From Myxococcota bacterium (lineage in GTDB: Bacteria; Myxococcota_A; UBA9160; JAFDET01): DNA of 64,000 bases. The notes beneath the pieces were generated by a model that was not told the DNA's origin, did not search any database, and saw only the letters and a program-made list of their open reading frames with translations. Below are positions 25,795 through 40,099 of this stretch, in pieces. The stretch lies in assembly GCA_028278065.1 (NCBI GenBank), contig JANQFA010000193.1, positions 2,940 to 66,939 on the forward strand. Reading direction: 5' to 3'. The translations under genes and the position numbers were made by a program. Position 1 is the first letter of the stretch; each line of letters begins with the position of its first letter.

Positions 25795-25879
25795 CGAACA
25801 CTCCCTGTGAGGGTCGGGACACGGTGGGGCCATGAGGCGCATGCGCCCCCGGCCCCACCGGCAGGATCATGGCACCGGA

Positions 25880-27190
25880 CTAGCGGCCGCGGGTGAGCCG
25901 TCCGATGTCGATGTAGCGCCGCACCTTGCCCGTGCTCTTGAGCGGCGTTCCGTTGCTGTCCCAGAACTCGATGCGGTTGCCCGTACCGGTCTGCACGTTG
26001 ACGATCATGTCGGAGACCACGCGCAGGTCGCGCGGCGTTTCGACGCCCTTCCATCCCTTGTACCAGTCGGGATCCGACTCGCTCCAGCGCTTGTTGTGCC
26101 AGAGGATCTTCCAGAGCTCCTCCTTCTGGTCGTAGGCGAAGGAGTAGAGCGGCACGAGGGTCTGCTTGTCGAGGTAGATGTCCTTGTGGTGGTACGGGTG
26201 ATCGTCGTTCTTGGGCTTCATCCGCACCTTCACAGCGTTGCGCACCTCCCACAGGTCGTCCGCATACGACAGGCCGTACGGCCCGAAGTTGTGCTCCTTG
26301 TTGTAGGGATAGGCGCGCACCTTGGAGTTGGTCGGCGCGATCATCTCCATCTCGCCGAGGCACTCCCAGCTGTACTGGGGAACGATGCCCGCGAAGCTGC
26401 GCAGGTCGTCGAGGGTGAAGTCGGTGCCCGAGACGGCGTCGGTGCGCTGGGCGGCCGAGATGCGACGGACACGGCGCATGGTGGGCAGGTAGACCCAGGT
26501 GTCGTCGTTCTTCGCGTCCGCACGCGCATTGTCCGATGCCTTGTAGCGGTAGGTCATCAGGTTGATGCCGCGCGCGTCGAACGGAGCGGTCACCTCGATG
26601 CCGAACGCGCTCTTGCGGCGCTCCTTGCGGAAGAGGTCGCCCTGCTGCTTGTCGAGGAGGTCCTTCTCCACCCGGTGGGCGAGCTGGACGGTTCGCGAAG
26701 TGCCCTCGTAGTAGAGGGGCAGCTGCTCACCGCGGTCCCAGTAGGAGTAGAAGAAGTGGGCGAAGGCCCCATCCCCCGACCAGGCGTAGTCGAAGTTCCA
26801 CATGATCTTCGTCCCGGCCTGGGGATCACCCTTGCAGTCGATCTCTTCCATGGGGAAGGGCTGGCCGGCGGTGTAGTTCTCGAGGCTGTCATCGGGACCG
26901 ATGCGCGCCTGCCCCTTGTACGCCTCGGTGGCGTCCTGGTACTCCTTCGCCGGGGTGTAGTCGGCGTGGAAGGGACCGATCTCGAGGCGCATGCCCTCGT
27001 AGAAGAAGAAGTCGCGGTTCGCCCAGAACTCGGGCGGCAGGTACTTCTTCAGGGAGTCCAGCTTGTCGAAGGTGATGGTGTCGCCTTCCTTGAAGGCCGG
27101 ACCGGTGACTCCCGCGTCTTCCTGCGCCGACGCCGGCGCAGCGAGGGCCAGCGCGATGGCGGGGATCAGCAGGCGGTGGATTCGGATCAT
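25880..27190 (-). CDS. DUF1329 domain protein (secreted)
   Basis: Signal peptide; AGQPFP, WVYLPTMRRVRRISAAQRTD, YDQKEELWK. Confidence 0.8.
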   Translation of the reverse strand: MIRIHRLLIPAIALALAAPASAQEDAGVTGPAFKEGDTITFDKLDSLKKYLPPEFWANRDFFFYEGMRLEIGPFHADYTPAKEYQDATEAYKGQARIGPDDSLENYTAGQPFPMEEIDCKGDPQAGTKIMWNFDYAWSGDGAFAHFFYSYWDRGEQLPLYYEGTSRTVQLAHRVEKDLLDKQQGDLFRKERRKSAFGIEVTAPFDARGINLMTYRYKASDNARADAKNDDTWVYLPTMRRVRRISAAQRTDAVSGTDFTLDDLRSFAGIVPQYSWECLGEMEMIAPTNSKVRAYPYNKEHNFGPYGLSYADDLWEVRNAVKVRMKPKNDDHPYHHKDIYLDKQTLVPLYSFAYDQKEELWKILWHNKRWSESDPDWYKGWKGVETPRDLRVVSDMIVNVQTGTGNRIEFWDSNGTPLKSTGKVRRYIDIGRLTRGR

Positions 27191-27291
27191 CGACGACTCC
27201 TTTGCGCAACGGGGTTCCCCAGCAGGCGCTTCGGGCGCGCGATCCCCCTGGGAAACCTGGGGGCTGCCTAGCTTAGCTGCGTGAGGCCGAA

Positions 27292-27357
27292 GAGGCGAGC
27301 AAGAACGCCCGGCCGCCTCCCCGGGAGGCGAGCAGGAACGCCCCGCCGCCTCCCCGG
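27292..27357. repeat. Two-copy 33-bp direct repeat with internal palindrome in the divergent intergenic region
   Basis: gaggcgagca(a/g)gaacgccc(g/c)gccgcctccccgg x2; each unit has gaggcg...cgcctc arms. Confidence 0.85.
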
Positions 27358-27438
27358 ATATGACGCAGCAGGACCTCGATCCGATTCAGGGCGCTCGATT
27401 TGTGCCCGGCGCGGACCGGCCGTACGGTGCGAGGGCCC

Positions 27439-28836
27439 ATGGATCCCGCCCTCGATTCCACTCCGCCCCGCCCGCTTCCGGCGGCCGGCGGTGCAGCGCG
27501 CCGATGGCCGTCGGCCCGGGCGCTGGGGCTGGTCCAGGGCGCGATCCTGCTCCGCGAGGGCCTGGTGTGGGCGTGGGTCGCAGGCTGGGGACGCCTCGGC
27601 GACCTCTTCGCGACGAGATCCCGGCGCTCCGAGCGACGCGAGGCGCGCCGGGCGCGTCATCTGCAGCGGCTGGCCGTCGCCCTCGGGCGCCTGAAGGGCG
27701 CCTTTGCCAAGGCCGGGCAGTTCGCCGCACTCCGCTACGACGCCCTGCCGCCGCCGGTCCGGGGCGCCCTGGCCGAGCTCCAGGATCGGGTCCCCCCACT
27801 GCCCTTCGAGGCGATCCGGGCGGTGGTGGAGGAGGAGCTCGGTGAGCCGATCGAGGGGCGCTTCGCCCGCTTCGATCCCGAGCCGCTCGGGGCCGCCTCG
27901 ATCGCCCAGGTGCATCGCGCGTGGCTCCCGGATGGGCGCGAGGTGGCCGTGAAGGTGCAGTACCCCTGGCTGGCCGAATCGCTCCCGGCCGACCTGGCCA
28001 TCGCCCGACGCCTGGTCCGGCTCTGGACCCGCGGCCGGCGCGGGCCCGTCGACTCGAGCGAGCTCTTCGACGAGTTCGCCCGCGGCCTCTCCGAGGAGCT
28101 CGACTTCGTCCGCGAGGCCGACGTGGCCGAGGAGATCGCCGCCAACCTGGCCGGAGAGACCGGGATCGTGGTGCCCCGCGTCCACCGCGAGCACTCGGCG
28201 CGGCGCGTCCTCACCCTCGACTACCACCGCGGCGCGCGCGTGACCGACCGTGCGGCCCTGGCTCGCGCGGGGGTGGACCCGGCGGACGTGCTGCGTCTCC
28301 TCGCCCGCGCCTACGCCCAGCAGGTCTTCGGCGACGGGCTCTTCCACGCCGACCCCCATCCCGGCAACCTGTTCGTCGCCGACGAGCCGGCGCCCGGCGG
28401 TGGACCCCGGGTGGTCTTCGTGGACTTCGGCCTGGCGCGACGCCTCGATCCGGAGCTCCGCGCCGCGATGCGGCGCGGCGTCTACGCGCTCCTGCAGCGG
28501 AGCCCCGAGACGTTCGTATCCGAGATGGGAGCCGCCGGGATGATCGAGGCCGGGCGTGAGGAGGACGTGCAGCGCTCGGTGGAGGCGATGTTCGCGCGCA
28601 TCGCCAGCGCCGGAGCGGCGCCGCTGGGCCTGTCGGGAGGCCAGGTCCTCGACCTCAAGGACGAGGCCAAGGCGCTCCTCGAGGAGACGCCGGGGCTGCG
28701 CCTCCCCAACGACCTCCTCCTCTGGGCGAAGACCCTCTCCTACCTGCTGGCGCTGGGCCAGGAACTCGCCCCGGAGGTAGATGTGGTGCGCCTGGTGGTG
28801 CCGCACCTGCTCCGGTTCCTGGCGGAGCGTGACTGA
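27439..28836 (+). CDS. ABC1/AarF/UbiB family atypical kinase
   Basis: [48 protein letters not shown]; start uncertain. Confidence 0.9.
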   Translation: MDPALDSTPPRPLPAAGGAARRWPSARALGLVQGAILLREGLVWAWVAGWGRLGDLFATRSRRSERREARRARHLQRLAVALGRLKGAFAKAGQFAALRYDALPPPVRGALAELQDRVPPLPFEAIRAVVEEELGEPIEGRFARFDPEPLGAASIAQVHRAWLPDGREVAVKVQYPWLAESLPADLAIARRLVRLWTRGRRGPVDSSELFDEFARGLSEELDFVREADVAEEIAANLAGETGIVVPRVHREHSARRVLTLDYHRGARVTDRAALARAGVDPADVLRLLARAYAQQVFGDGLFHADPHPGNLFVADEPAPGGGPRVVFVDFGLARRLDPELRAAMRRGVYALLQRSPETFVSEMGAAGMIEAGREEDVQRSVEAMFARIASAGAAPLGLSGGQVLDLKDEAKALLEETPGLRLPNDLLLWAKTLSYLLALGQELAPEVDVVRLVVPHLLRFLAERD

Positions 28837-28863
28837 GCGCTTCGGCGGGCGGCGCTTCCGAGC

Positions 28864-28939
28864 GTCGCGGCTAGCGGCGCCCGGGGGTCGCGGCTAGCGG
28901 CGGCCGGGGGTCGCGGCTAGCGGCGGCCGGGGGTCGCGG

Positions 28940-28952
<13 letters not shown>
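28864..28952. repeat. 23-bp tandem repeat (~4 copies) containing the argG stop codon
   Basis: gtcgcggctagcggcggccgggg units starting at 28864, 28887, 28910 and 28933. Confidence 0.9.
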
Positions 28953-30139
<1,187 letters not shown>

Positions 30140-30217
30140 CGTCCGCACCTCCTCGTGGCGCGGGAAGGTAGCGTCTCGTCAGGCCTGGGGGAGACGAGCC
30201 GCGCCGGCAGCGCTGCG

Positions 30218-31162
30218 TCAGGCCAGGGGCAGACGAACCGCGGTCGTGACCCCCGCGACCGGATCGGCGACCCGGGCGACCGAGCCGCCGAGGGGCTCGG
30301 TCACCGCCGAGAGCGACGCGGGCGCGCACTCGTCCTCGGGCGCGAAGCTCCTCGCGTCGTCCGGGGGCACCTCGGTGAACGAGAAGAGCACCCCCGCCTT
30401 GAGCGCCTTCGCCGTCCAGGTGAAGCGGCTGCCCTCGGGCGCCGCCTCGAGCCGCTCGCGGGCGAAGCGCACGAAGGCATCCACCAGACGGCCCGGCTCG
30501 CCCTTCACCGCGGGCAGAGCCGCGGGCAGCAGGAGCTCGAGCTGGTGCCCCGCGACGCGCGCGGTGCGGGCGGCGGCGTCGCCCACCTCGTGGGCGCCCG
30601 CCAGCGCATCCGCCACCGCCTGGGCGGGACGCTCGGAACGCTGCGCCACCGCGTCGCGCAGCTCGTCGCTCCACTTGCGCAGGCGCTCGGACGCACGGAG
30701 TCCCGTCTCCACCTGCGCGCGAAAGCGCTCCGCCCGGCGCCCGCCGGTCTGCTCCAGCATGCTGTCGAGGGCCGAGGCGAGCTCGGCGAGGGGCTCCTGG
30801 ATCTCGCGGTGGTAGGAGAGCACGCGCTCCCCGGCCGGCTCCTCGAAGAACAGGAAGATGATCCCGACGTTGGCACCTTCGGCTGCGATCGGCGCCGCCG
30901 AGGCGGCGTACGCATGGTCGCCCTCGCGCAGCCGGAAGCGCACCGTGCGCCCCTCGCGACAGACCCGGTCCGTGGCGGCCAGCACCACCTCGCGGGCGCC
31001 GCCGGCGAAGATCTCGGCGAGCGGGCGTCCACGCGTCTCGCCCTCGCAGGTGTCGAAGGCCTCGCCGAACGCCGGATTGACGTACACCGCCTTGCCGTCC
31101 GGATCGGCGACGGCGACCGGAGCCGGCAGGAAGGGGAGGAGCGAGCTTCCGGGCGAGGTCAT
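30218..31162 (-). CDS. PAS-domain protein with degenerate HisKA/HATPase fold (pseudo-histidine kinase)
   Basis: PAS: PVAVADPDGKAVYVNPAF...GRPLAEIF; HREIQEPL; LPAVKGEPGRL...LGGSV...GVTTAVRLP, lacking N/G1/G2 boxes. Confidence 0.65.
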   Translation of the reverse strand: MTSPGSSLLPFLPAPVAVADPDGKAVYVNPAFGEAFDTCEGETRGRPLAEIFAGGAREVVLAATDRVCREGRTVRFRLREGDHAYAASAAPIAAEGANVGIIFLFFEEPAGERVLSYHREIQEPLAELASALDSMLEQTGGRRAERFRAQVETGLRASERLRKWSDELRDAVAQRSERPAQAVADALAGAHEVGDAAARTARVAGHQLELLLPAALPAVKGEPGRLVDAFVRFARERLEAAPEGSRFTWTAKALKAGVLFSFTEVPPDDARSFAPEDECAPASLSAVTEPLGGSVARVADPVAGVTTAVRLPLA

Positions 31163-31731
31163 TCAGCGGCCACGACGCCCGCCTCGAGGAGACCGGACAG
31201 GGTGCGAAGGGTGTCGAAGGGGTCGAGTCCCGACAGGGAGATCAGGTCGTTCACCGTGGTATGGCCGTCCACGAGGGAGAGCAGGAAGCCGGTCGTGGCC
31301 GGCAGGTTGAAGCCCATCAGCTGGCGGTCGTTCAGCCGCACTGCGGGCACCGCCTCGAGGCCGCCGACCCGCTCCCGGTAGCGGGTGAGGAGCTTGCTGC
31401 GCACCATCTCGAGGTAGGTCTCCACCTCGATCTGCTCGCCGTCGCGGCGCGCCAGGGTCTCGAACAGCTCGAGCGCGGCCTCGAGATGCCCTTCGCGCAT
31501 GAGGCGCATGGCGTCCTCCGCCAGGTCCGGCCGGCGCTCGCGCGCCGGCGCCTCCGGCGCGCCGCCGTCCTCCTCGAGTGCCTCGAGGTAGTCGCGAGCC
31601 TCGGCGTTCTCGGGGTCGAGGAAGAGCGCCTCGCCCCAGCAACGCCCCGCCTCCGCCGCGCGGCCCTCGCCGTAGTGGTCGAGGCCCGCCTGGAGGAGGC
31701 GTGCGACCTGTTCCTGCCGGGATTCCGCCAT
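31159..31731 (-). CDS. TPR-like plus C-terminal wHTH-like hypothetical protein
   Basis: AGRCWGEALFLDPENAEARDYL (TPR-like); C-terminal GFLLSLVDGHTTVNDL...LLEAGVV. Confidence 0.7.
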   Translation of the reverse strand: MAESRQEQVARLLQAGLDHYGEGRAAEAGRCWGEALFLDPENAEARDYLEALEEDGGAPEAPARERRPDLAEDAMRLMREGHLEAALELFETLARRDGEQIEVETYLEMVRSKLLTRYRERVGGLEAVPAVRLNDRQLMGFNLPATTGFLLSLVDGHTTVNDLISLSGLDPFDTLRTLSGLLEAGVVAAE

Positions 31732-31740
31732 CGCCCCCGC

Positions 31741-33312
31741 CTACTCCTTCGTCGCGACCTCGTAGAGCTCGTGGTCCTCGATGATGCGCTCGATCTCGTC
31801 CTGCGAGAGCGTGCCCGTGGCGTTCACCGTGATCGACTGCTCCTTGCCCGTGGCCAGGTCGGTGGCCGAGACGCTGACGATGCCGTTGGCATCGATGTCG
31901 AAGCACACCTCGATCTCCGGCTCTCCCTGGGGCGCCTTGCGGATGCCCGACAGGATGAACTCGCCGAGCAGGTCGTTCTCCGCCGCAGCCTCGGCCTCGC
32001 CCTGCAGCACGCGGATCTTCACCGCGCTCTGCCCGTCGCGCGTCGTGGTGAACGTGTGCGTCTTGCGCACCGGCACCGTCGTGTTGCGCTCGATCAGCTT
32101 GGCGAAGTGGCCCCCCACCGTGGCGATGCCCAGGGAGAGCGGCGTCACGTCGAGCAGCAGCAGGTTCGACTCGTCCGAGGTGAGCGCCTCGCCCTGGAGG
32201 GCCGCGCCGATCGCCACGACCTCGTCCGGGTTGACGCCCTTGTGCGGCCCCTTGTTGAAGAACTCGCCCACGGCCTTCTGGATGAGGGGCATGCGGGTCT
32301 GGCCGCCGACCAGGATGACCCGGTCGACGTCGCCGGGCTGGAGCCCCGCGTCGGCGACGCAGGCTTCCACGGTCTTGAGGGTCTGGTTGACGAGGCCGTG
32401 CACCAGCGCCTCGAGAGTCGCGCGATCCATCTCCAGCTGGAGATGGCGCGGCCCCGAGTCGTCGCTGGCGATGAACGGCAGGCTGATCTCGGTCTTCTCG
32501 CGCTCGGAGAGATCGCACTTGGCCTTCTCCGCGGCGTCCTTCAGGCGCTGCAGGGCCATCGCGTCCTCGCGCAGGTCGATGCCTTCGTTCTCCTCGAACT
32601 TCTCGAGCAGGTGGGCCACGATCATCCGGTCGAAGTCCTCGCCCCCGAGGAACGTGTTGCCGCCGGTCGCCAGCACCTCGATCACGCCGTCGCTCATGTC
32701 GAGCACCGAGATGTCGAACGTGCCGCCGCCCAGGTCGTAGATGGCGACCTTCTCCTCCTCGCGGTGCCCCGCGCCGTAGGCCATCGCCGCGGCCGTCGGC
32801 TCGTTGATGATGCGCAGCACCTCGAGGCCCGCGATCTTCCCGGCGTCCTTCGTGCACTGTCGCTGGGTATCGTTGAAGTACGCCGGGACGGTGATCACCG
32901 CGTCGGACACGGGTTCGCCGACGTACTCCTCGGCCACCCGCTTCATCTCGCGCAGGATGATGCCGCCGATCTCCGGACAGGTGAACGTCTTGCCGGCGAT
33001 CTTGATGCGCGGATCGTCGTTGGCCCCGCGCACGATCTCGTAGGGGCAGAGGTCGATGGCCTTCTGCACCTCGGGCGCGTCGAAGCGACGTCCGATGAGA
33101 CGCTTGGAGGCGTGCACCGTGTTGCGCGAGTTCGTCACCGCCTGACGCTTGGCCAGGTGGCCCACCAGACGCTTGCCGTCGTGCGAGATCGCGAACATCG
33201 AGGGAGTGGTCCGGTACCCCCCGGCGTTCGGGATCACCGTGGGCTGCCCGTTCTCGATCACGGACACGCACGAGTTGGTGGTACCCAGGTCGATTCCGAT
33301 CACGCGACTCAT
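31741..33312 (-). CDS. Hsp70/DnaK paralogue lacking most of the C-terminal helical lid (523 aa)
   Basis: [38 protein letters not shown], linker [20 protein letters not shown]; ends ...[14 protein letters not shown]. Confidence 0.92.
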
Positions 33313-33345
33313 CGTCTTCCTCCCCTCCACCCGGAGGTGGCTCCC

Positions 33346-34662
33346 CTAGAGCGACTTCAGGGCCTGCTTGGCCTCGAGATCCCTGGGATCCAGGCGCAGC
33401 GCCGTCTTCAGCTCGCGCCGCGCGTTGGCCTTGAGACCGGCGGCGGCGTAGATCTGCCCGAGCCCTCGGTGGTACTCGGCCTTGTCGGGATCCGCCTCGA
33501 CGGCCCGCATCGCGTACTCCTTGGCGCGGTGCAGGTCGTCGGCCGCCAGCCAGGCCAGCTTCGCGGCGACGTGGTTGGCCTCCGGATCGTACGGGCGGAA
33601 GATGAGCGCCTCTTCGTAGATGCGCAGCGCATCCTTGCGATCCCGGAACGAGAGCGCGCTGTCCGCCTCCTTCATGAGCTGGGCGAAGCGGATCTCGTGG
33701 GCCTGGGCCTGGACCTCGCCGAAGCGCTCGCGGTAGAGCGCGCTCTTGGGGTCGTAGGCGACGGCGAGCCGAAGGCTGGCCGCAGCCTCCAGCCAGCGCT
33801 CATCGCTGACCGCAGCCATCGCGGCCTCGAAGAAGCTCTTGGCCTTGGCCTTGCGCTTGGCGATGAGCCGGCCGAGCGGGCTGAAGGGGGACAGCGCACG
33901 CTTGCGCCGGCGCTCGGCGCGCTCGGACGCGGCCTTCGGGTCGGCCGAGTCCGCACCCTCCACCGGCGCCGCCTCGGCGTCGGCGCCCAGCGAGCGCTCC
34001 ATCTCGGCGCGCACCGTGGGGTCGCTCATCAGCTCGTAGGCCTCGACCACCTTGCGGAAGATGCGCTCCAGGGGCTCCTTGAACGGCCCGATGTCGCGTC
34101 GGAACCAGCGATCCGGATGGAACTCCTTGGAGAGCTGGAAGTAGGCCCTCTTCACCGCGCGGGCATCGGCGTCGCTCGCGACTCCGAGAATCTCGGCGTA
34201 GGGCCGCTCGAGCCGCTCGTGGAAGTCGAGGATCGCCTGCTGCGCCTCCTCGGGGATGTCGAGGCCGGGATCGAGCGCGGGCAGGTCGGACGCGACAGCC
34301 GGAGAACCGGCCTCGGTCGCGGCGGCGGCGGACTCGCCTTCGGGTGACGACGCGTTGGCCTCGAGCCGGGGCGGAGCTCCCGCTCTCGTGGCGGATGCCC
34401 CGTTGACACGCTCCGTCGCCGGGGGCCCCGCCTTGCTCCAGACGACGACACCCGCCTCCGCCCAGCGCGCCAGGCACAGATCGACATCGTGGGGAGGCAG
34501 ACCGGCCAGCTGCGAGAGCAGGTCCTTGGGTGTGTGGCCGTCGATCCGCGAGAGCAGGAATCCCTCCTGGGGAGACAGGTCCAGGCGCGTGAGATCGCAG
34601 TCGGGCGCGAGCGCCGGCACGCGCACGTCCTTCCGATCTCCTGCCGCATCCGCCGAAGACAT
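33346..34662 (-). CDS. J-domain co-chaperone with N-terminal wHTH-like domain and C-terminal TPRs
   Basis: YAEILGV...VKRAYFQLSKEFHPDRW...EAYELMSDP; TPRs AVEADPDKAEYH and ALRLDPRDLEA. Confidence 0.88.
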   Translation of the reverse strand: MSSADAAGDRKDVRVPALAPDCDLTRLDLSPQEGFLLSRIDGHTPKDLLSQLAGLPPHDVDLCLARWAEAGVVVWSKAGPPATERVNGASATRAGAPPRLEANASSPEGESAAAATEAGSPAVASDLPALDPGLDIPEEAQQAILDFHERLERPYAEILGVASDADARAVKRAYFQLSKEFHPDRWFRRDIGPFKEPLERIFRKVVEAYELMSDPTVRAEMERSLGADAEAAPVEGADSADPKAASERAERRRKRALSPFSPLGRLIAKRKAKAKSFFEAAMAAVSDERWLEAAASLRLAVAYDPKSALYRERFGEVQAQAHEIRFAQLMKEADSALSFRDRKDALRIYEEALIFRPYDPEANHVAAKLAWLAADDLHRAKEYAMRAVEADPDKAEYHRGLGQIYAAAGLKANARRELKTALRLDPRDLEAKQALKSL

Positions 34663-34827
34663 GGATCCTCCCGCACGCCTCCCGAGACGGGAGACGCGCC
34701 CGTGCGTCTCATCGGCAGATTCCCCCGCCGGACTGAGGGAACTTGGGGTAGTCCCTAGACTCCGATGTCCCCGAGGGGAGGGGACAGGAGGCGCCGGCAG
34801 ACCCCCGCGAAGCGCGCGGAGGCGCGC

Positions 34828-35745
34828 TCAGCCGGTGAGGAGGCGCTCCAGGATGGCCTTCTGTGCGTGGAGCCGATTCTCGGCCTGGTCGAACACGATC
34901 GAGCGCGGGCCGTCCAGGACGTCGTCGCTGATCTCCTCGCCCCGGTGAGCCGGCAGGCAGTGCAGGATCCAGGCGTCCGGCGCGCCACGCAGCAGCTCCG
35001 CGTTCACCTGGTAGTCGGCGAAGATGCGGCGTCGCTCCTCGGCCTCGTCCTCCTGGCCCATGCTCGCCCACACGTCGGTGTAGACGAAGCCCGCGCCCTC
35101 GACCGCCTCCCGCGGGTCGGCGCTCCAGGCGATCCTCGCACCGCTGGCCGCCGCCAGGTCCCGGGCCTGGGCCCACACGTCAGCGGGTACCCGGTGGCTC
35201 TCCGGCGTGGCCAGGCGTACCTCGACCCCGAGAACCGCGCCCGCCAGCACCAGCGAGCTGGCCACGTTGTTGCCGTCGCCGATGTACGCGATCACCGCCC
35301 GCTCCAGGTCGGCCCGCTCGGCCACGGTCACGAAGTCCGCCATGGCCTGGCACGGGTGCAGCTGGTCGGTGAGGCCGTTGATGACGGGGATGCTCCCCTC
35401 CCGGGCCAGCTCGCGCACCAGGTCGTGGCTGAACGTGCGCGCCACCAGGGCGTCGACCCAGCGCGAGAGGTTGCGCGCCACGTCGCCGCCCGTCTCGCGG
35501 CTGCCGATTCCCACCTGCTCGGGACGCAGCAGGATGGCGTGCCCCCCGAGCTGGGTCATGCCCGCCTCGAACGTGACGTGCGTGCGCAGCGACGGCTTCT
35601 CGAAGTACATCGCCAGAGTGCGGCCCTGCAGGGTCTGCGGTCGCTCGCCGCGCTTCCACAGATCCTTCAGCTCGCGCGCGCGATCGAGGAGCGCGCGCAG
35701 CTCCTGTGCGGGCCAGTCGGCAACGCTGATGAAGTCCTTGGGCAT
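34828..35745 (-). CDS. argF: Ornithine carbamoyltransferase
   Basis: FEKPSLRT, HPCQ, GDGNNVA, YTDVWASMGQE, HCLPAHRGEE, DQAENRLH. Confidence 0.93.
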   Translation of the reverse strand: MPKDFISVADWPAQELRALLDRARELKDLWKRGERPQTLQGRTLAMYFEKPSLRTHVTFEAGMTQLGGHAILLRPEQVGIGSRETGGDVARNLSRWVDALVARTFSHDLVRELAREGSIPVINGLTDQLHPCQAMADFVTVAERADLERAVIAYIGDGNNVASSLVLAGAVLGVEVRLATPESHRVPADVWAQARDLAAASGARIAWSADPREAVEGAGFVYTDVWASMGQEDEAEERRRIFADYQVNAELLRGAPDAWILHCLPAHRGEEISDDVLDGPRSIVFDQAENRLHAQKAILERLLTG

Positions 35746-35750
35746 CGGAT

Positions 35751-36605
35751 TCACCTCGCGATCAGGGTGCCGACGCCACCGTCGGTGAAGATCTCGAGCA
35801 GGATGGCGTGCTTGATGCGCCCGTCGATCACGTGGGCGCGCTCGACGCCGCCCTCCACGGCGGCCATGCAGCACTCCACCTTGGGGATCATGCCCTCGCG
35901 GATGGTGCCTTCGTCGATGAGCTTCCTGGCCTCCTCCACGGAGAGCTGGCCGATGAGCTCGCCGTCGGCGCCCTCCACGCCCTCCACATCGGTGAGCATG
36001 AGGAGCTTCGCGGCGCCCAGGGCGCGGGCGATGGCGCCCGCCGCATCGTCGGCATTCACGTTGTGCGAGACCCCGTCGCCATCCACGCCCACCGGCGCGA
36101 CCACCGGGACGAAGCCCGCGTCCGCGGCGGCCATCACCGCCGCGGGGTCCACCGCCGTCACCTCGCCCACGCGTCCGATGTCCCGCCCGTCCACCGTCTT
36201 GCGTCGCACGCGCAGCATTCCGGCGTCCTTGCCGGAGAGACCGACGGCCGAGCCTCCGCCGCGGTTGACCAGCTGCACGATGTCCTGGTTGATCTTGCCG
36301 CCGAGGACCATCTCCACCACTTCCATGGTCTCGTCATCCGTGACGCGCAGGCCGTTCACGTAGCTGGATTCCTTGCCCAGGCGTCGGAGGGTCTCCTTGA
36401 TCTGCGGGCCGCCGCCGTGCACCACCACCGGCCGGACACCGATGTACTTGAGGAGCACCACGTCCACGGCGAACTGGGCGCGCAGGTCGTCGTCGATCAT
36501 CGCGTGGCCGCCGTACTTGATGACGAAGGTCTTGCCCCGGAAGCGCTGGATGTAGGGGAGCGCTTCGACCAGGACGGCGGCCTTCTGGATCAGCGACTGG
36601 ACCAC
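35751..36605 (-). CDS. argB: Acetylglutamate kinase
   Basis: EALPYIQRF, KYGGHAM, VHGGGPQI, NVNAD, GMIPKV. Confidence 0.97.
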   Translation of the reverse strand: MVQSLIQKAAVLVEALPYIQRFRGKTFVIKYGGHAMIDDDLRAQFAVDVVLLKYIGVRPVVVHGGGPQIKETLRRLGKESSYVNGLRVTDDETMEVVEMVLGGKINQDIVQLVNRGGGSAVGLSGKDAGMLRVRRKTVDGRDIGRVGEVTAVDPAAVMAAADAGFVPVVAPVGVDGDGVSHNVNADDAAGAIARALGAAKLLMLTDVEGVEGADGELIGQLSVEEARKLIDEGTIREGMIPKVECCMAAVEGGVERAHVIDGRIKHAILLEIFTDGGVGTLIAR

Positions 36606-36637
36606 GGGGAACCTCGCTCCGTCGGGGGGCGGACGGA

Positions 36638-38146
36638 CTACGCGGGGTCGCGCGACTCCCGGCGGGCGCGCGCGACCTCCTCGATCGAATCCACGAGGCT
36701 ACGGTACAGGAGCACGTTGCGCACGGCCGTCGAGAGGGCGGCGGTGAGCACCTCGCCCGCGCGCGGCGAGGTGCGCGCGGGAGGGGCGAGGAAGGCACGG
36801 AAGACGCCCAGGGTCTTTCCGCGGAAGCGCATGGGCAGACACAGGAACGGGCCGGGCTCCCCCGCGGCGAGCGTGTCGATCTCCGGATCGAAGCGCGGGT
36901 CGCGGGACGGATCGTCGGTCGCCACCGGCCGGCCCGTCTCGAGCACCGTTCCCGTGAGGCCGCGTCCCGTGGCGAGGCTCTCGCGGTCGCTGGCCTCCCC
37001 GGGGCTCCAGGCGCCCTCGCAGGTCAGCCCGCCCTCCGGGTCGCGCAGATGGAGCGCAACGCACTGGGCGCCGAGCGCCTCCCCGGCGGCAGCGAGCGCC
37101 CCGGCGACCACACGCACCGGCTCCACTTCCGCCACGACCGCCTCGCACACGGCCCGCGCCATCTCGCCGTCCTCGGATCCGCCCGCCTCGTCGAGGGGCA
37201 GGGTCGTCGCCTCGGGTGCCGACACGGAGGGGCCGGCCGCCGCGGCGCCGCTCTCCTCGGCGCTGAGCAGCGCGGCCGCCTGCTGCGCGAGGACGCGAAG
37301 CAGGAGCAGGTCTTCGGGGTAGGGTGTGCCGCCCTCGCGCGGGTCCGTGGAGCAGAGCACACCCAGGGCCCGGTCTCCCGCCACCACCGGCGCCACCACG
37401 AAGCCGGTCGAGTCGTAACGATCGCGGGTCTTGCGCTCCCGGAAGCGCGGGTCGGTGGTCACGTCGCTCACCCACATGGGCTCGCTGCGCGCGAGACACA
37501 CGCCGGCGACGCCCTCCCCCACCGGCACCGGGTCCATCTCCGCGGCGGGCAGCTTGCTGCCGGTGGCCGCGGCAACCCGCAGCTCCGAGCCCGTGTCGTC
37601 CAGCAGCATCAGCGAGGCCTTGTCGGCACCCAGCACGTCGGACACCGTCTGTGCCACGGCGGAGTGCAGCTCGGCCGAGTCGCCACCGCTGCGCGCCAGG
37701 GTGACCAGACGCGCCGCACCGTGCTGCAGCTGGGCCAGCCGGGAGCGCAGGGCGTCGGCGGTGGCTGCGTGTTCGTACGTCTCGAGTGCACGCCGGACCG
37801 CCAGGGTGAGCTCCTCCTCGTGGAGCGGCTTGGCCAGGTAGTCGGAGGCACCCTGGCGCAGGGCGTCGATCACGTACGACTGGTCCTGGTGGGCGGACAG
37901 GATGATGACGGGGAGCGCGCGCCGCTTCTCGCGGATCTTGCCGAGGACCTCGAGACCGTCCATGCCCGGGAGGCGCACGTCCAGCACGACCGCGCCGATG
38001 GTGGGCTCGTCCACCATCTCCAACGCCTCCGCGCCGTCCGCGGCCAGCAGGCACTCGAGGCCTGCTCCCGACAGCGCGTCCTGGATCGCCTCTCGGAAGA
38101 AGCGCTCGTCGTCCACGACGAGCACACGGAAGAACCGGCCCTGCAT
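36638..38146 (-). CDS. Response regulator with receiver and two GAF domains
   Basis: VVDDE, LDVRLPGMDG, DYLAKP; GAF1 GEGVAG...DVTTDPRF; GAF2 GRGLTGTV...DPSRDPRF. Confidence 0.85.
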   Translation of the reverse strand: MQGRFFRVLVVDDERFFREAIQDALSGAGLECLLAADGAEALEMVDEPTIGAVVLDVRLPGMDGLEVLGKIREKRRALPVIILSAHQDQSYVIDALRQGASDYLAKPLHEEELTLAVRRALETYEHAATADALRSRLAQLQHGAARLVTLARSGGDSAELHSAVAQTVSDVLGADKASLMLLDDTGSELRVAAATGSKLPAAEMDPVPVGEGVAGVCLARSEPMWVSDVTTDPRFRERKTRDRYDSTGFVVAPVVAGDRALGVLCSTDPREGGTPYPEDLLLLRVLAQQAAALLSAEESGAAAAGPSVSAPEATTLPLDEAGGSEDGEMARAVCEAVVAEVEPVRVVAGALAAAGEALGAQCVALHLRDPEGGLTCEGAWSPGEASDRESLATGRGLTGTVLETGRPVATDDPSRDPRFDPEIDTLAAGEPGPFLCLPMRFRGKTLGVFRAFLAPPARTSPRAGEVLTAALSTAVRNVLLYRSLVDSIEEVARARRESRDPA

Positions 38147-38213
38147 CCCCCCTCCCCTGCTGCGGCCAGCGTAGCGCGGTCCCGCCTTCGGATGAACCGC
38201 GATGGTCGCTCGG

Positions 38214-39566
38214 CTACAGGATGAACCTCGAGAGGTCCTCGTCCTCGACCAGGCCGCCCAGCCGATCGCGCACCAGCGTCTCGTCCACTACCAGGCTCGT
38301 GCCCGAGAGGTCCGGCGCGTCGAAGCTGACGTCCTCGAGGAGCTTCTCCATGACGGTGTGGAGCCTGCGGGCGCCGATGTCGTCGGTGCGCTCGTTCACC
38401 CTGGCGGCGATCCGCGCGATGGCACGCACGCCGTCCTCCTTGAACTCCACCTCCACCGATTCGGTGGCGAGGAGGGCGGTGTACTGCCTCACCAGCGAGT
38501 TCCGCGGCTCCGAGAGGATCCGCACGAAGTCCTCCTCGGTCAGGCTCGAGAGCTCGACCCGGATCGGGAAGCGCCCCTGCAGCTCCGGGATGAGATCGGA
38601 GGGCTTGGCCACGTGGAAGGCGCCCGCCGCGACGAAGAGGATGTGGTCGGTGCGCACGGGTCCGTGCTTGGTCTGGACCGTGGACCCCTCGACGATGGGG
38701 AGCAGATCGCGCTGCACGCCCTCGCGAGAGACGTCGGGGCCCTGGGCCCCGCCCCCCGAGGCTCCCGCCGCGACCTTGTCCACCTCGTCCAGGAACACGA
38801 TCCCGGCCTGCTCGACCCGCTCCACCGCCAGCTCGCGCACCTTGTCCATGTCCACCAGCCGGCCGGCCTCTTCGGCGGCGAAGGCCTCGCGCGCCGCCGG
38901 GATCTTCATCTTGCGCTGGCGCGTCTTCTGCGGGAAGAGGTTGCCGAGCATGTCCTTCATCTGGATGCCCAGCTCCTCGACACCCTGGGGAGTGAAGATC
39001 GAGAGGTTGGGCGAGCCCCCGTCGGCCACCTCGACGTCCACGTCGCGGTCGTCCAGCCGGCCCTCGCGCAGCATGCGGCGCAGCTTCTCGCGGGTCTCGC
39101 CGCCCTCCGGCACCGGGGCGGCGAAGCCGGTCTGGCCCGGGCCGTGCGGAAGCAGCGCGTCGAGGATGCGCTCCTCGGCGCGCTCCTCCGCCTTGGCGCG
39201 GACGCCGCGCTTCTCCTCCTCGGCCACCAGGTTCACAGCCAGGTCGGCCAGGTCGCGGATGATCGACTCGACGTCGCGGCCCACGTAGCCCACCTCGGTG
39301 AACTTGGAGGCCTCGACCTTGATGAAGGGGGCCTGGGCCAGCCGCGCCAGACGCCGCGCGATCTCGGTCTTCCCGACGCCGGTCGGGCCGATCATGATGA
39401 TGTTCTTCGGGGCGATCTCGTCGCGCAGGTCCTCGGGCACCTGCTGGCGCCGCCAGCGGTTGCGCAGGGCAATCGCGACGGCGCGCTTGGCATCGCGCTG
39501 ACCGACGACGTAGCGGTCGAGCTCGGAGACGATCTCTCGGGGAGTGAAGGTGCGCAGGTCGGTCAT
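38214..39566 (-). CDS. hslU: ATP-dependent protease ATPase subunit HslU
   Basis: [55 protein letters not shown]. Confidence 0.97.
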
Positions 39567-40099
39567 GGGAGGGTTACCACGCTGATCTGGTCGTTGGTGT
39601 AGATGCAGATCCCGGCGGCGATGCGCAAGGCCTCCTCGGCCACCGCCTCCGCGGGAAGGTCGGTATGCGATACCAGCGCACGGGCCGCGGCCAGCGCGTA
39701 GGAGCCGCCGGACCCGATCGCGGCGATTCCGTCGTCGGGCTCGATCACGTCGCCGTTGCCGGACACGCACAGCACGCACTCGGGATCCCCCACCAGGAGA
39801 AGGGCCTCGAGGCGGCGCAGGGCGCGATCCGTGCGCCACTCGCGCGCCAGCTCCACGGCGGCACGACGCACGCCCGCCGGGTGGGCCTCCAGCTTGGACT
39901 CGAGGCGCTCGGTCAGGGCGAGCGCGTCGGCCGCCCCGCCCGCGAAGCCCACCAGGGCGCGGTCGCCCGCGGCCGGCCTCACCTTCTTCGCGCCGTGTTT
40001 CATCACGGCGTCTCCCACGGTGACCTGGCCGTCGGAGGCCATGGCGATACGTCCGTCACGGACGACCGCGATGACGGTGGTGGAACGGACCGCATTCAT
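39563..40099 (-). CDS. hslV: ATP-dependent protease subunit HslV
   Basis: [44 protein letters not shown]. Confidence 0.95.

Follow-up and report, generated by a model that had tools for sequence, protein, structure and literature searches.

A lidless Hsp70 encoded with a J/TPR protein, a TPR/winged-helix protein, and a PAS pseudo-histidine-kinase in an arginine gene cluster of Myxococcota: a candidate chaperone-based signaling system

Four co-oriented genes lie between argF and argG

We analyzed a 64,000-nucleotide (nt) stretch of a Myxococcota bacterium genome (assembly GCA_028278065.1, contig JANQFA010000193.1, positions 2,940 to 66,939), referred to here as the window. On its minus strand, between argF and argG, four co-oriented open reading frames (ORFs) in the order P1-P2-P3-P4 occupy positions 30218-34662. 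P1 (33346-34662) encodes a class-C J-domain protein of 438 amino acids (aa), P2 (31741-33312) a lidless DnaK-type Hsp70 of 523 aa, P3 (31159-31731) an acidic scaffold protein of 190 aa, and P4 (30218-31162) a PAS pseudo-histidine-kinase of 314 aa. The sequence gives a spacing of 33 nt between P1 and P2 and of 9 nt between P2 and P3, while P3 and P4 overlap in an ATGA. An initial annotation of the window had described four co-oriented genes splitting argB-argF from argG, with gaps of about 33 and 9 nt and one ATGA overlap. The ORFs and the Pfam assignments of the flanking genes confirmed this layout, and the same spacing was obtained with the P2 start placed at the ATG at 33312.

In the loci first fetched from relatives, the order response regulator, argB, argF, P1, P2, P3, P4, argG was found in 15 of 15 cases; argF was missing in two of them, and argG was not seen in three, one of which lies at a contig edge. 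Because the gene order recurs in all 15, the four-gene arrangement is not a product of chance.

P2 is a DnaK-type Hsp70 without a helical lid

The ORF lister puts the start of P2 at a GTG at 33330. We placed it at the ATG at 33312 because 13 of 14 orthologues (520-523 aa) start at the matching methionine; a GGAGG sits 8 nt upstream of this ATG. P2 matched PF00012 with an E value of 8e-214 and 711.7 bits (cut-off 20.6), and the match covered positions 1-520 of the 599 in the profile. Because the match ends at position 520, we conclude that P2 is without the helical lid, as the initial annotation had proposed, and its short length is conserved in orthologues. The protein ends about 80-90 residues short of full-length relatives, in the place of the C-terminal alpha subdomain that forms the lid. 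It retains the nucleotide-binding domain, the interdomain linker LLLLDVTPL, the beta substrate-binding domain, and one helix, after which a conserved tail, ELYEVxxKx, closes the protein. The ATPase motifs, the linker, and the core of the beta domain were invariant or nearly so in an alignment of 17 sequences that included housekeeping DnaK.

Among the family models, P2 scored above the cut-off of NF001413 (PRK00290; 785 bits, cut-off 648), below that of TIGR02350 (755.7 versus 822.55), and far below those of the HscA models (541 versus 709 bits), and it groups with DnaK-type proteins. Identity to orthologues across the loci of the window's order was 73-93% for P2, compared to 37-65% for P1, 35-75% for P3, and 33-72% for P4. 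By these values, P2 is far more constrained than its three partners.

The window's genome encodes four full Hsp70s: one in an hrcA-grpE-dnaK-dnaJ operon, a stand-alone DnaK at a contig end, an 817-aa fusion, and P2. At least three Hsp70s exceeded the PRK00290 cut-off in each of five genomes checked, and the one from the operon studied here was the lowest of the top three. We compared 49 Hsp70s in a quick maximum-likelihood tree with Shimodaira-Hasegawa-like approximate likelihood ratio test (SH-aLRT) support only, from which one split copy (L142) was left out. The Hsp70s of the P1-P4 operon lay across a branch with 98% support from the stand-alone and grpE-linked DnaKs, and the lidless Hsp70s formed one clade (99%). 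The initial annotation had held that a grouping of P2 with housekeeping DnaK would speak against a dedicated system; in this quick tree, the 98% branch separates the two. P2 thus differs from a housekeeping DnaK both in its neighbors, with neither hrcA nor grpE beside it, and in its separate clade.

The 817-aa Hsp70 (L110:5912-8365, minus strand) matches profile positions 1-520 only and continues into a long proline- and acidic-rich tail. It is followed by a J-protein of 179 aa and then by a 684-aa fusion of a peroxiredoxin and a multihaem cytochrome. The tree places it with short Hsp70s from another genome.

P1 and P3 share a winged-helix domain

The N-terminal domain of P1 (residues ~15-73, nt 34444-34620) is winged-helix-like; behind it, a linker of low complexity leads to a J domain (residues 157-220, nt 34003-34194; Pfam DnaJ, E value of 5e-12), and a TPR region (residues ~280-438; Pfam TPR_2/TPR_11, with a TPR match at 370-435) forms the C terminus. 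The HPD motif of the J domain (nt 34111-34119) is invariant in 15 of 15 aligned relatives, in line with the HPD-intact J protein read from the sequence at the outset. In Pfam, P1 matched neither DnaJ_C nor the zinc finger (DnaJ_CXXCXGXG), while the true DnaJ of the same genome has both. P1 therefore has the DnaJ-TPR architecture of a class-C J-protein, and a J domain combined with TPRs is among the class-C architectures listed in the literature (PMC10410713).

P3 matches TPR only weakly in Pfam; TPR_2 was found in 13 of 14 members of its family. An AlphaFold model built on 14 relatives reached a mean predicted local distance difference test score (pLDDT) of 86.7 and showed TPR-like helices at residues 5-54 and 70-122, followed by a C-terminal winged helix (residues ~128-190, nt 31171-31350). 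In alignments with VIA-align, residues 121-190 superposed on a winged helix of the GATOR1 complex with a Z score of 10.6 and a root mean square deviation of 2.0 A over 69 aa. Residues 1-123 gave Z scores of 8-10.5 with the TPRs of PP5, Sti1, Tom70, Sgt2, and CHIP, values that are generic for helical repeats. A Foldseek search of the P3 model against the Protein Data Bank returned no match at an E value of 0.001 or lower.

The first ~75 residues of P1 and the last ~60 of P3 share 45% identity over 60 aa (E value of 5e-10), so the N terminus of P1 and the C terminus of P3 carry the same domain. Both copies are acidic, with an isoelectric point (pI) of 4.5-4.7; that of P3 has a pI of 4.5 and a net charge of -4. 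Because of this acidic charge, DNA binding is unlikely, and we read the domain as a protein-binding module.

PatA_N/DUF4388 (PF14332) was absent from the families listed for either P1 or P3 at an E value of 0.1 or lower and from the 25 of 29 families shown for 14 P3 members at an E value of 1 or lower. In a protein-language-model search, clusters combining PatA_N and TPR scored 0.87-0.88, under the 0.9 level taken as a lead. The long P3-like proteins of other lineages have TPRs at the N terminus and before the winged helix and carry no enzyme domain. In two loci of a sister family (L122 and L123), the J-protein measures only ~340 aa, and its alignment begins at the J domain; it seems to be without the N-terminal winged-helix domain, while P3 there keeps its own winged helix.

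P4 has the fold of a histidine kinase without its catalytic motifs

PAS_4 (E value of 9e-10) was the sole Pfam match of P4 and covered residues 12-105 (nt 30848-31129). The AlphaFold model (pLDDT of 83.4) placed two long helices and an alpha/beta domain after the PAS domain, that is, the DHp and CA fold of a histidine kinase: a DHp-like helical hairpin at residues 110-175 (nt 30638-30835), whose EQTGGRR tip is invariant, and a CA-like domain at residues 182-313 (nt 30224-30619). The hairpin tip is the most conserved piece of P4 outside the PAS domain. Foldseek returned at least 500 matches at an E value of 0.001 or lower, and the top matches listed were histidine kinases, including LOV-histidine kinases, ThkA, CpxA, and the pseudo-kinase DivL, with E values down to 1.5e-17. 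A profile of the P4 family gave E values of 1e-9 with ZraS, 3e-9 with DivL, and 9e-4 with RetS.

The column aligned to the phospho-acceptor histidine of ZraS holds R, D, or A, and family members carry G, Q, T, or R in place of the neighboring histidine. The N-box asparagine positions are R and E, the G1 box reads TEVP without glycines, and the G2 stretch is deleted as compared to ZraS. Neither HisKA nor HATPase_c was matched by P4 in Pfam or found in the precomputed Pfam annotation of 47 family clusters. Because a histidine-kinase fold is combined with the loss of the phospho-acceptor histidine and of the N, G1, and G2 boxes, we assign P4 as a pseudo-histidine-kinase. A PAS protein with a degenerate kinase core had been read from the sequence before; the model now gives it a histidine-kinase fold, and the alignment shows its catalytic motifs to be dead.

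The P4 family is small and sharply bounded, with 47 clusters at 90% identity. It counts 75 representatives at an E value of 1e-30 or lower, followed by a drop to generic PAS kinases. A few distant relatives of 327-351 aa are also without the histidine and have N, S, or D in its place. In 12 genomes of the order, P4 is reduced to the PAS domain and the hairpin, ~140-200 aa in total (for example, L150:9901-10422), and this form always stands directly after the Hsp70 gene and always without P3. Because these 12 genomes keep only the PAS and DHp parts, the kinase-like domain is dispensable, and catalysis is not the job of P4. In a complex prediction, two copies of P4 with P3 scored 0.60, compared to 0.45 for a control in which chain 1 was replaced, a result that speaks neither for binding nor against it.

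P4 is tied to the lidless Hsp70 within the order

When P3 was first used as a query, 24 of 41 genomes of the order gave matches, counting that of the window. A scan of named records with the P3 alignment then gave 257 relatives, all of them in metagenome-assembled genomes (MAGs) titled uncultured Myxococcota or "Deltaproteobacteria," from which 80 loci were kept. In 55 of the 80, the locus was of the window's type, and P4 followed P3 in 53 of these; the other two end at a contig edge. The initial annotation had called for such a neighborhood comparison, and both sets (15/15 and 53/55 loci) show that the genes co-occur in relatives.

We took a census of 101 genomes of the order, the window's own among them. 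An orthologue of the lidless Hsp70 was present as a single copy in 88 and P4 as a single copy in 66. Both genes were found in 61 genomes; in 60 they lie on the same contig less than 1 kb apart and in one on different contigs, while five genomes have P4 without an Hsp70 match at the threshold. P4 was never seen away from the Hsp70 in the sampled order, and the adjacency of the two genes is strict.

P3 does not share this adjacency. The gap between the Hsp70 and P4 genes measures 442-760 nt in 37 of the 60 genomes, which leaves room for P3; in the other 23, it is 164 nt or less, so that P4 follows the Hsp70 directly, with no room for P3. One complete genome of the order has the arrangement regulator-argB-argF-J-Hsp70-P4-argG. 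P3 and P4 have thus been gained and lost independently, from which it follows that the J-protein and the Hsp70 form the core and that P3 and P4 are separable accessories.

These observations divide the initial annotation's view of a dedicated system with its own adaptor and sensor. A dedicated, non-housekeeping Hsp70 set stands. The chain from adaptor to sensor does not, as P4 occurs without P3 in 23 of 60 genomes and P3 occurs without P4 in a sister family and in other classes.

The four-gene set is one version of a phylum-wide trio

The remaining 25 of the 80 loci were more distant and mostly titled Polyangiaceae. A J/TPR-Hsp70-P3-like arrangement was present in 23 of them and P4 in none. 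In one such locus, a lid-bearing Hsp70 of 615 aa and a P3-like protein of 355 aa are followed by an M1 peptidase gene, with argB ~4.5 kb downstream.

At the level of the phylum, 187 of 301 sampled genomes contained a match to the P3 profile, and 20 loci were fetched from 19 genomes of many families. In 19 of the 20, we found the J/TPR-Hsp70-P3-like trio, with the P3-like gene directly after that of the Hsp70. The Hsp70 has 597-638 aa and a lid in 17 of these 19 loci. The other two belong to the sister family, encode Hsp70s of 520 and 525 aa, and have the order argB-argF-J-Hsp70-P3-argG without P4. Genes of arginine biosynthesis lay inside the fetched stretch in 12 of the 19 trio loci.

Thus, the four-part combination is not a separate unit but the form that a J-Hsp70-TPR/winged-helix trio, present across the phylum, takes in one lineage. 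Among the sampled genomes, the Hsp70 of the trio has lost its lid in no class but the window's, and no P4 turned up outside the window's order. This distribution suggests that an old trio became lodged in the arg cluster, that the lid was lost once in the window's class, and that P4 was added in the window's order.

The full-length trio Hsp70s of other classes end in (M/L)(F/L)KGVV plus three to seven residues, a tail seen in L103, L111, L115, L117-L121, L125, and L130. This tail and the ELYEVxxKx of P2 may be docking sites.

Comparison with known Hsp70 systems and pseudo-kinases

HscA-HscB and HscC-DjlC are specialized bacterial pairs of an Hsp70 and a J-protein. The set described here resembles them in that an Hsp70 paralogue is encoded beside its own J-protein with a narrow task. 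Neither these pairs nor the DnaJ-TPR class includes a winged-helix/TPR scaffold or a PAS pseudo-kinase, and we know of no description of HscA-HscB or HscC-DjlC as naturally lidless. As for the TPR co-chaperones that hold Hsp70 or Hsp90 tails in a three-repeat carboxylate clamp, the P3 TPRs align with them at Z scores of 8-10.5, a range common to helical repeats in general, and the ELYEVxxKx tail of P2 is conserved.

The closest functional parallel is DjlA of Escherichia coli. According to a study of the Rcs pathway, DjlA activates Rcs through its own J domain together with DnaK and GrpE, and it weakens contacts between IgaA and RcsD (PMC11709261). The contact weakened is that of IgaA with the PAS-like domain of the pseudo-kinase RcsD (same source). 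In both cases, a class-C J-protein would bring an Hsp70 to a two-component pathway that contains a pseudo-kinase; for the present locus, this likeness is drawn from the genes. DjlA works with housekeeping DnaK and GrpE, is anchored in the membrane, contains a TerB domain, and is encoded away from its target. In the present operon, in contrast, the Hsp70 is private and lidless, the J-protein carries a winged helix and TPRs, and the pseudo-kinase gene belongs to the same operon.

Specialized DnaK paralogues with non-heat-shock, regulatory roles have been described in Myxococcus xanthus, a member of the same phylum. There, stkA, encoding a protein of 540 aa, is followed by an SCP2 gene (stkB) and an 89-aa gene (stkC) (PMC4319316), and sglK lies downstream of, and is co-transcribed with, the GrpE homologue grpS (bioRxiv 10.64898/2026.08.28.747804). 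Compared by gene context alone, the operon has neither layout: P2 is followed by a TPR/winged-helix gene and a PAS gene, the gene upstream of it encodes a J/TPR protein, and no GrpE is encoded in the window. A third paralogue, MXAN_2747, is reported to have a much shorter alpha subdomain (PMC8265645). If MXAN_2747 or MXAN_3016 belonged to the P2 clade, the mutant phenotypes already published, lower sporulation and oxidative resistance, would bear on P2.

P4 resembles DivL and RetS, which have the histidine-kinase fold and act by binding partners rather than by phosphotransfer. Compared to them, it is small and soluble, is without the phospho-acceptor and the N, G1, and G2 boxes, and is tied to an Hsp70 operon.

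In a search of open-access papers and bioRxiv, we came upon no account of the gene set. What is already known is each element on its own: dedicated Hsp70/J pairs, J-TPR proteins, and pseudo-kinases. In the same literature, we did not find a class-wide lidless DnaK paralogue, a strict pairing of an Hsp70 with a PAS pseudo-kinase, or the phylum-wide seat of the trio in the arg cluster.

A possible chaperone machine acting on a pseudo-kinase complex

Our preferred reading, to which we give a probability of about one-half, is that the operon encodes a dedicated Hsp70 machine, distinct from that of bulk folding, which would remodel a pseudo-kinase signaling complex, by analogy with the action of DjlA-DnaK on RcsD. 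The HPD motif of P1 would trigger ATP hydrolysis in P2. Truncation of the lid is known to give DnaK fast on/off binding and to make folded clients tolerable, and the lost lid could give P2 the same fast exchange and leave space for clients that are folded. In P1 and P3, the winged helices and TPRs would serve as protein-protein modules that select the client or the place of action. P4, predicted to be unable to bind ATP or to be phosphorylated on histidine, would form the signaling end of the system. It could be a client, or else a sensor-scaffold, with the J-Hsp70 cycle loosening or resetting the contacts within its dimer or with a partner. A signal sensed by its PAS domain might in this way be turned into a change in a partner, possibly the receiver-GAF protein encoded nearby. 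We infer from these data the stimulation of the ATPase by the J-protein and the role of P4 as client or partner, and likewise what the output is and whether arginine is involved.

Specialized Hsp70 paralogues are common in bacteria with complex lifestyles, and almost none of their clients has been identified; here, gene adjacency names a likely client or partner of P2 in the dead PAS-kinase, whose gene is next to that of the Hsp70 in 60 of 61 sampled genomes that encode the two. In addition, the operon presents an Hsp70 that lost its lid naturally and has long remained without it, and its relatives form a natural deletion series with J-Hsp70 alone, with the scaffold, with the pseudo-kinase, and with both. 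It is conceivable, though we think it unlikely, that in this lineage the Hsp70 ATPase cycle has taken over the energy-input step of a two-component-like pathway. P4 would then have given up signaling by phosphorylation, and the lidless Hsp70 with its J-protein would set the contacts within the P4 dimer or with a partner; the PAS domain would determine when P4 turns into a client, and the receiver-GAF protein or the arg genes would be the output. If so, a single operon would encode a signaling switch driven by a chaperone.

Several observations weigh against a machine devoted to P4. The lidless Hsp70 occurs without P4 in 27 of 88 genomes, and two fetched loci keep J-Hsp70 only; the J-Hsp70 core must therefore have a task for which P3 and P4 are not required. 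The operon is also without an exchange factor. As the initial annotation had stated, the window holds no grpE or hrcA, since tblastn with the genome's own GrpE and HrcA found no match in it; the single GrpE match in the genome, which is 90.5% complete, lies on another contig. A scan of the locus detected no promoter-like site and one terminator-like site, inside P4, which is no more than shuffled sequences give. With neither kind of element located, the operon may or may not be transcribed together with argF and argG. The four sequencing runs listed for holders of the locus come from two studies and are all DNA, with no RNA run among them. Last, the trio stands among arg genes across the phylum, which points to another, metabolic link for which the preferred reading has no explanation.

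According to that metabolic alternative, the J-Hsp70 set assembles or controls ArgF, ArgG, or ArgB, or couples the arginine pathway to a signal, and is co-transcribed with the arg genes. The position between argF and argG holds here and across the order, arg genes accompany the trio in the 12 of 19 loci of other families noted above, and the order argB-argF-J-Hsp70-P3-argG recurs in the sister family as well as in a distant family, there in two genomes. Moreover, the intergenic gaps are only 165 nt from argF to P1 and 69 nt from P4 to argG, and neither holds a terminator-like site. Such linkage, however, can be an inherited accident, and one old insertion would explain all cases. Seven of the 19 trio loci have no arg gene within ~9 kb on either side, the MAGs titled Polyangiaceae have other genes, such as that of the M1 peptidase, between the trio and argB, and several loci with all four genes intact have no argF or no argG next to them. 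Nothing in the four proteins points to arginine. We therefore regard an arginine-linked role as quite unlikely.

The persistence of the J-Hsp70 pair where P3 and P4 have been lost would also suit a general or back-up folding chaperone, that is, a third DnaK for some stress, with TPR helpers and with P4 as a mere neighbor. P2 scores over the DnaK (PRK00290) cut-off and keeps all ATPase and peptide-binding motifs, as such a chaperone should. The genome, however, already has two housekeeping-type DnaKs, one of them encoded with hrcA, grpE, and dnaJ, and P1 is without the client-binding domains of DnaJ. Furthermore, the lid was lost and has stayed lost in a whole class, the P3 and P4 genes overlap in an ATGA, and P4 is strictly adjacent to the Hsp70 in 60 of 61 genomes. 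This explanation is, in our view, rather improbable.

Judged by gene context, control of motility or exopolysaccharide in the manner of SglK or StkA, which the initial annotation had brought up, is very unlikely. Specialized DnaK paralogues of M. xanthus do control exopolysaccharide and social motility, and StkA is also short at 540 aa (PMC4319316, PMC8265645), but the stkA and sglK contexts differ from that of P2 (PMC4319316; bioRxiv 10.64898/2026.08.28.747804), SglK by its context would match the grpE-linked group that the tree separates from the P2 clade, and no pilus or polysaccharide genes lie beside the set.

Flanking genes and noncoding sequence

All genes of the arg cluster described here lie on the minus strand. 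Downstream of P4, argG (argininosuccinate synthase; 28940-30148) matched Arginosuc_synth and Arginosuc_syn_C in Pfam. Upstream of P1, an argF-type ornithine carbamoyltransferase gene (34828-35874) matched OTCace_N and OTCace; translation probably starts further into the ORF than 35874, since alignments with relatives begin only at residue 22-44. It is preceded by argB (acetylglutamate kinase; 35751-36605; AA_kinase).

Directly upstream of argB, a gene at 36638-38146 on the minus strand encodes a response regulator with two GAF domains (Response_reg and two GAF matches). Its receiver is intact, with the acidic pair DD, D56, the S/T residue, and the lysine, and the gene was kept in 15 of 15 loci of the order. 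The receiver-GAF-GAF protein is a possible signaling partner of P4, a hint drawn from co-occurrence in one lineage.

A noncoding block, CTGCCGATG (34710-34718, minus strand), lies ~45 nt upstream of the P1 start and is invariant in six of six aligned upstream regions of the window's own family. A CCCCnnGGGG hairpin further upstream of P1 (~34766-34786, minus strand) is invariant in the same six regions. Both elements are absent at this place in other families. We considered the block, which is conserved only in the window's own family, as an operator or a leader. A search of positions 28700-38400 against Rfam gave one sub-threshold match only and revealed no known leader RNA there and none for CTGCCGATG. 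Just after the block stands a 7-bp inverted repeat, GAGACGC/GCGTCTC.

A reading of the set as a defense system was dropped, as PADLOC returned no match for any of the four proteins. Three further ORFs flank the cluster, at 27268-28806 (minus strand, 512 aa), 25832-27271 (plus strand, 479 aa), and 38202-39602 (plus strand, 466 aa), and none of them matched a Pfam or NCBIfam family. In the same cluster of other lineages, a receiver-GGDEF gene follows argB in L103, and receiver-only matches were found in L117, L118, and L122.

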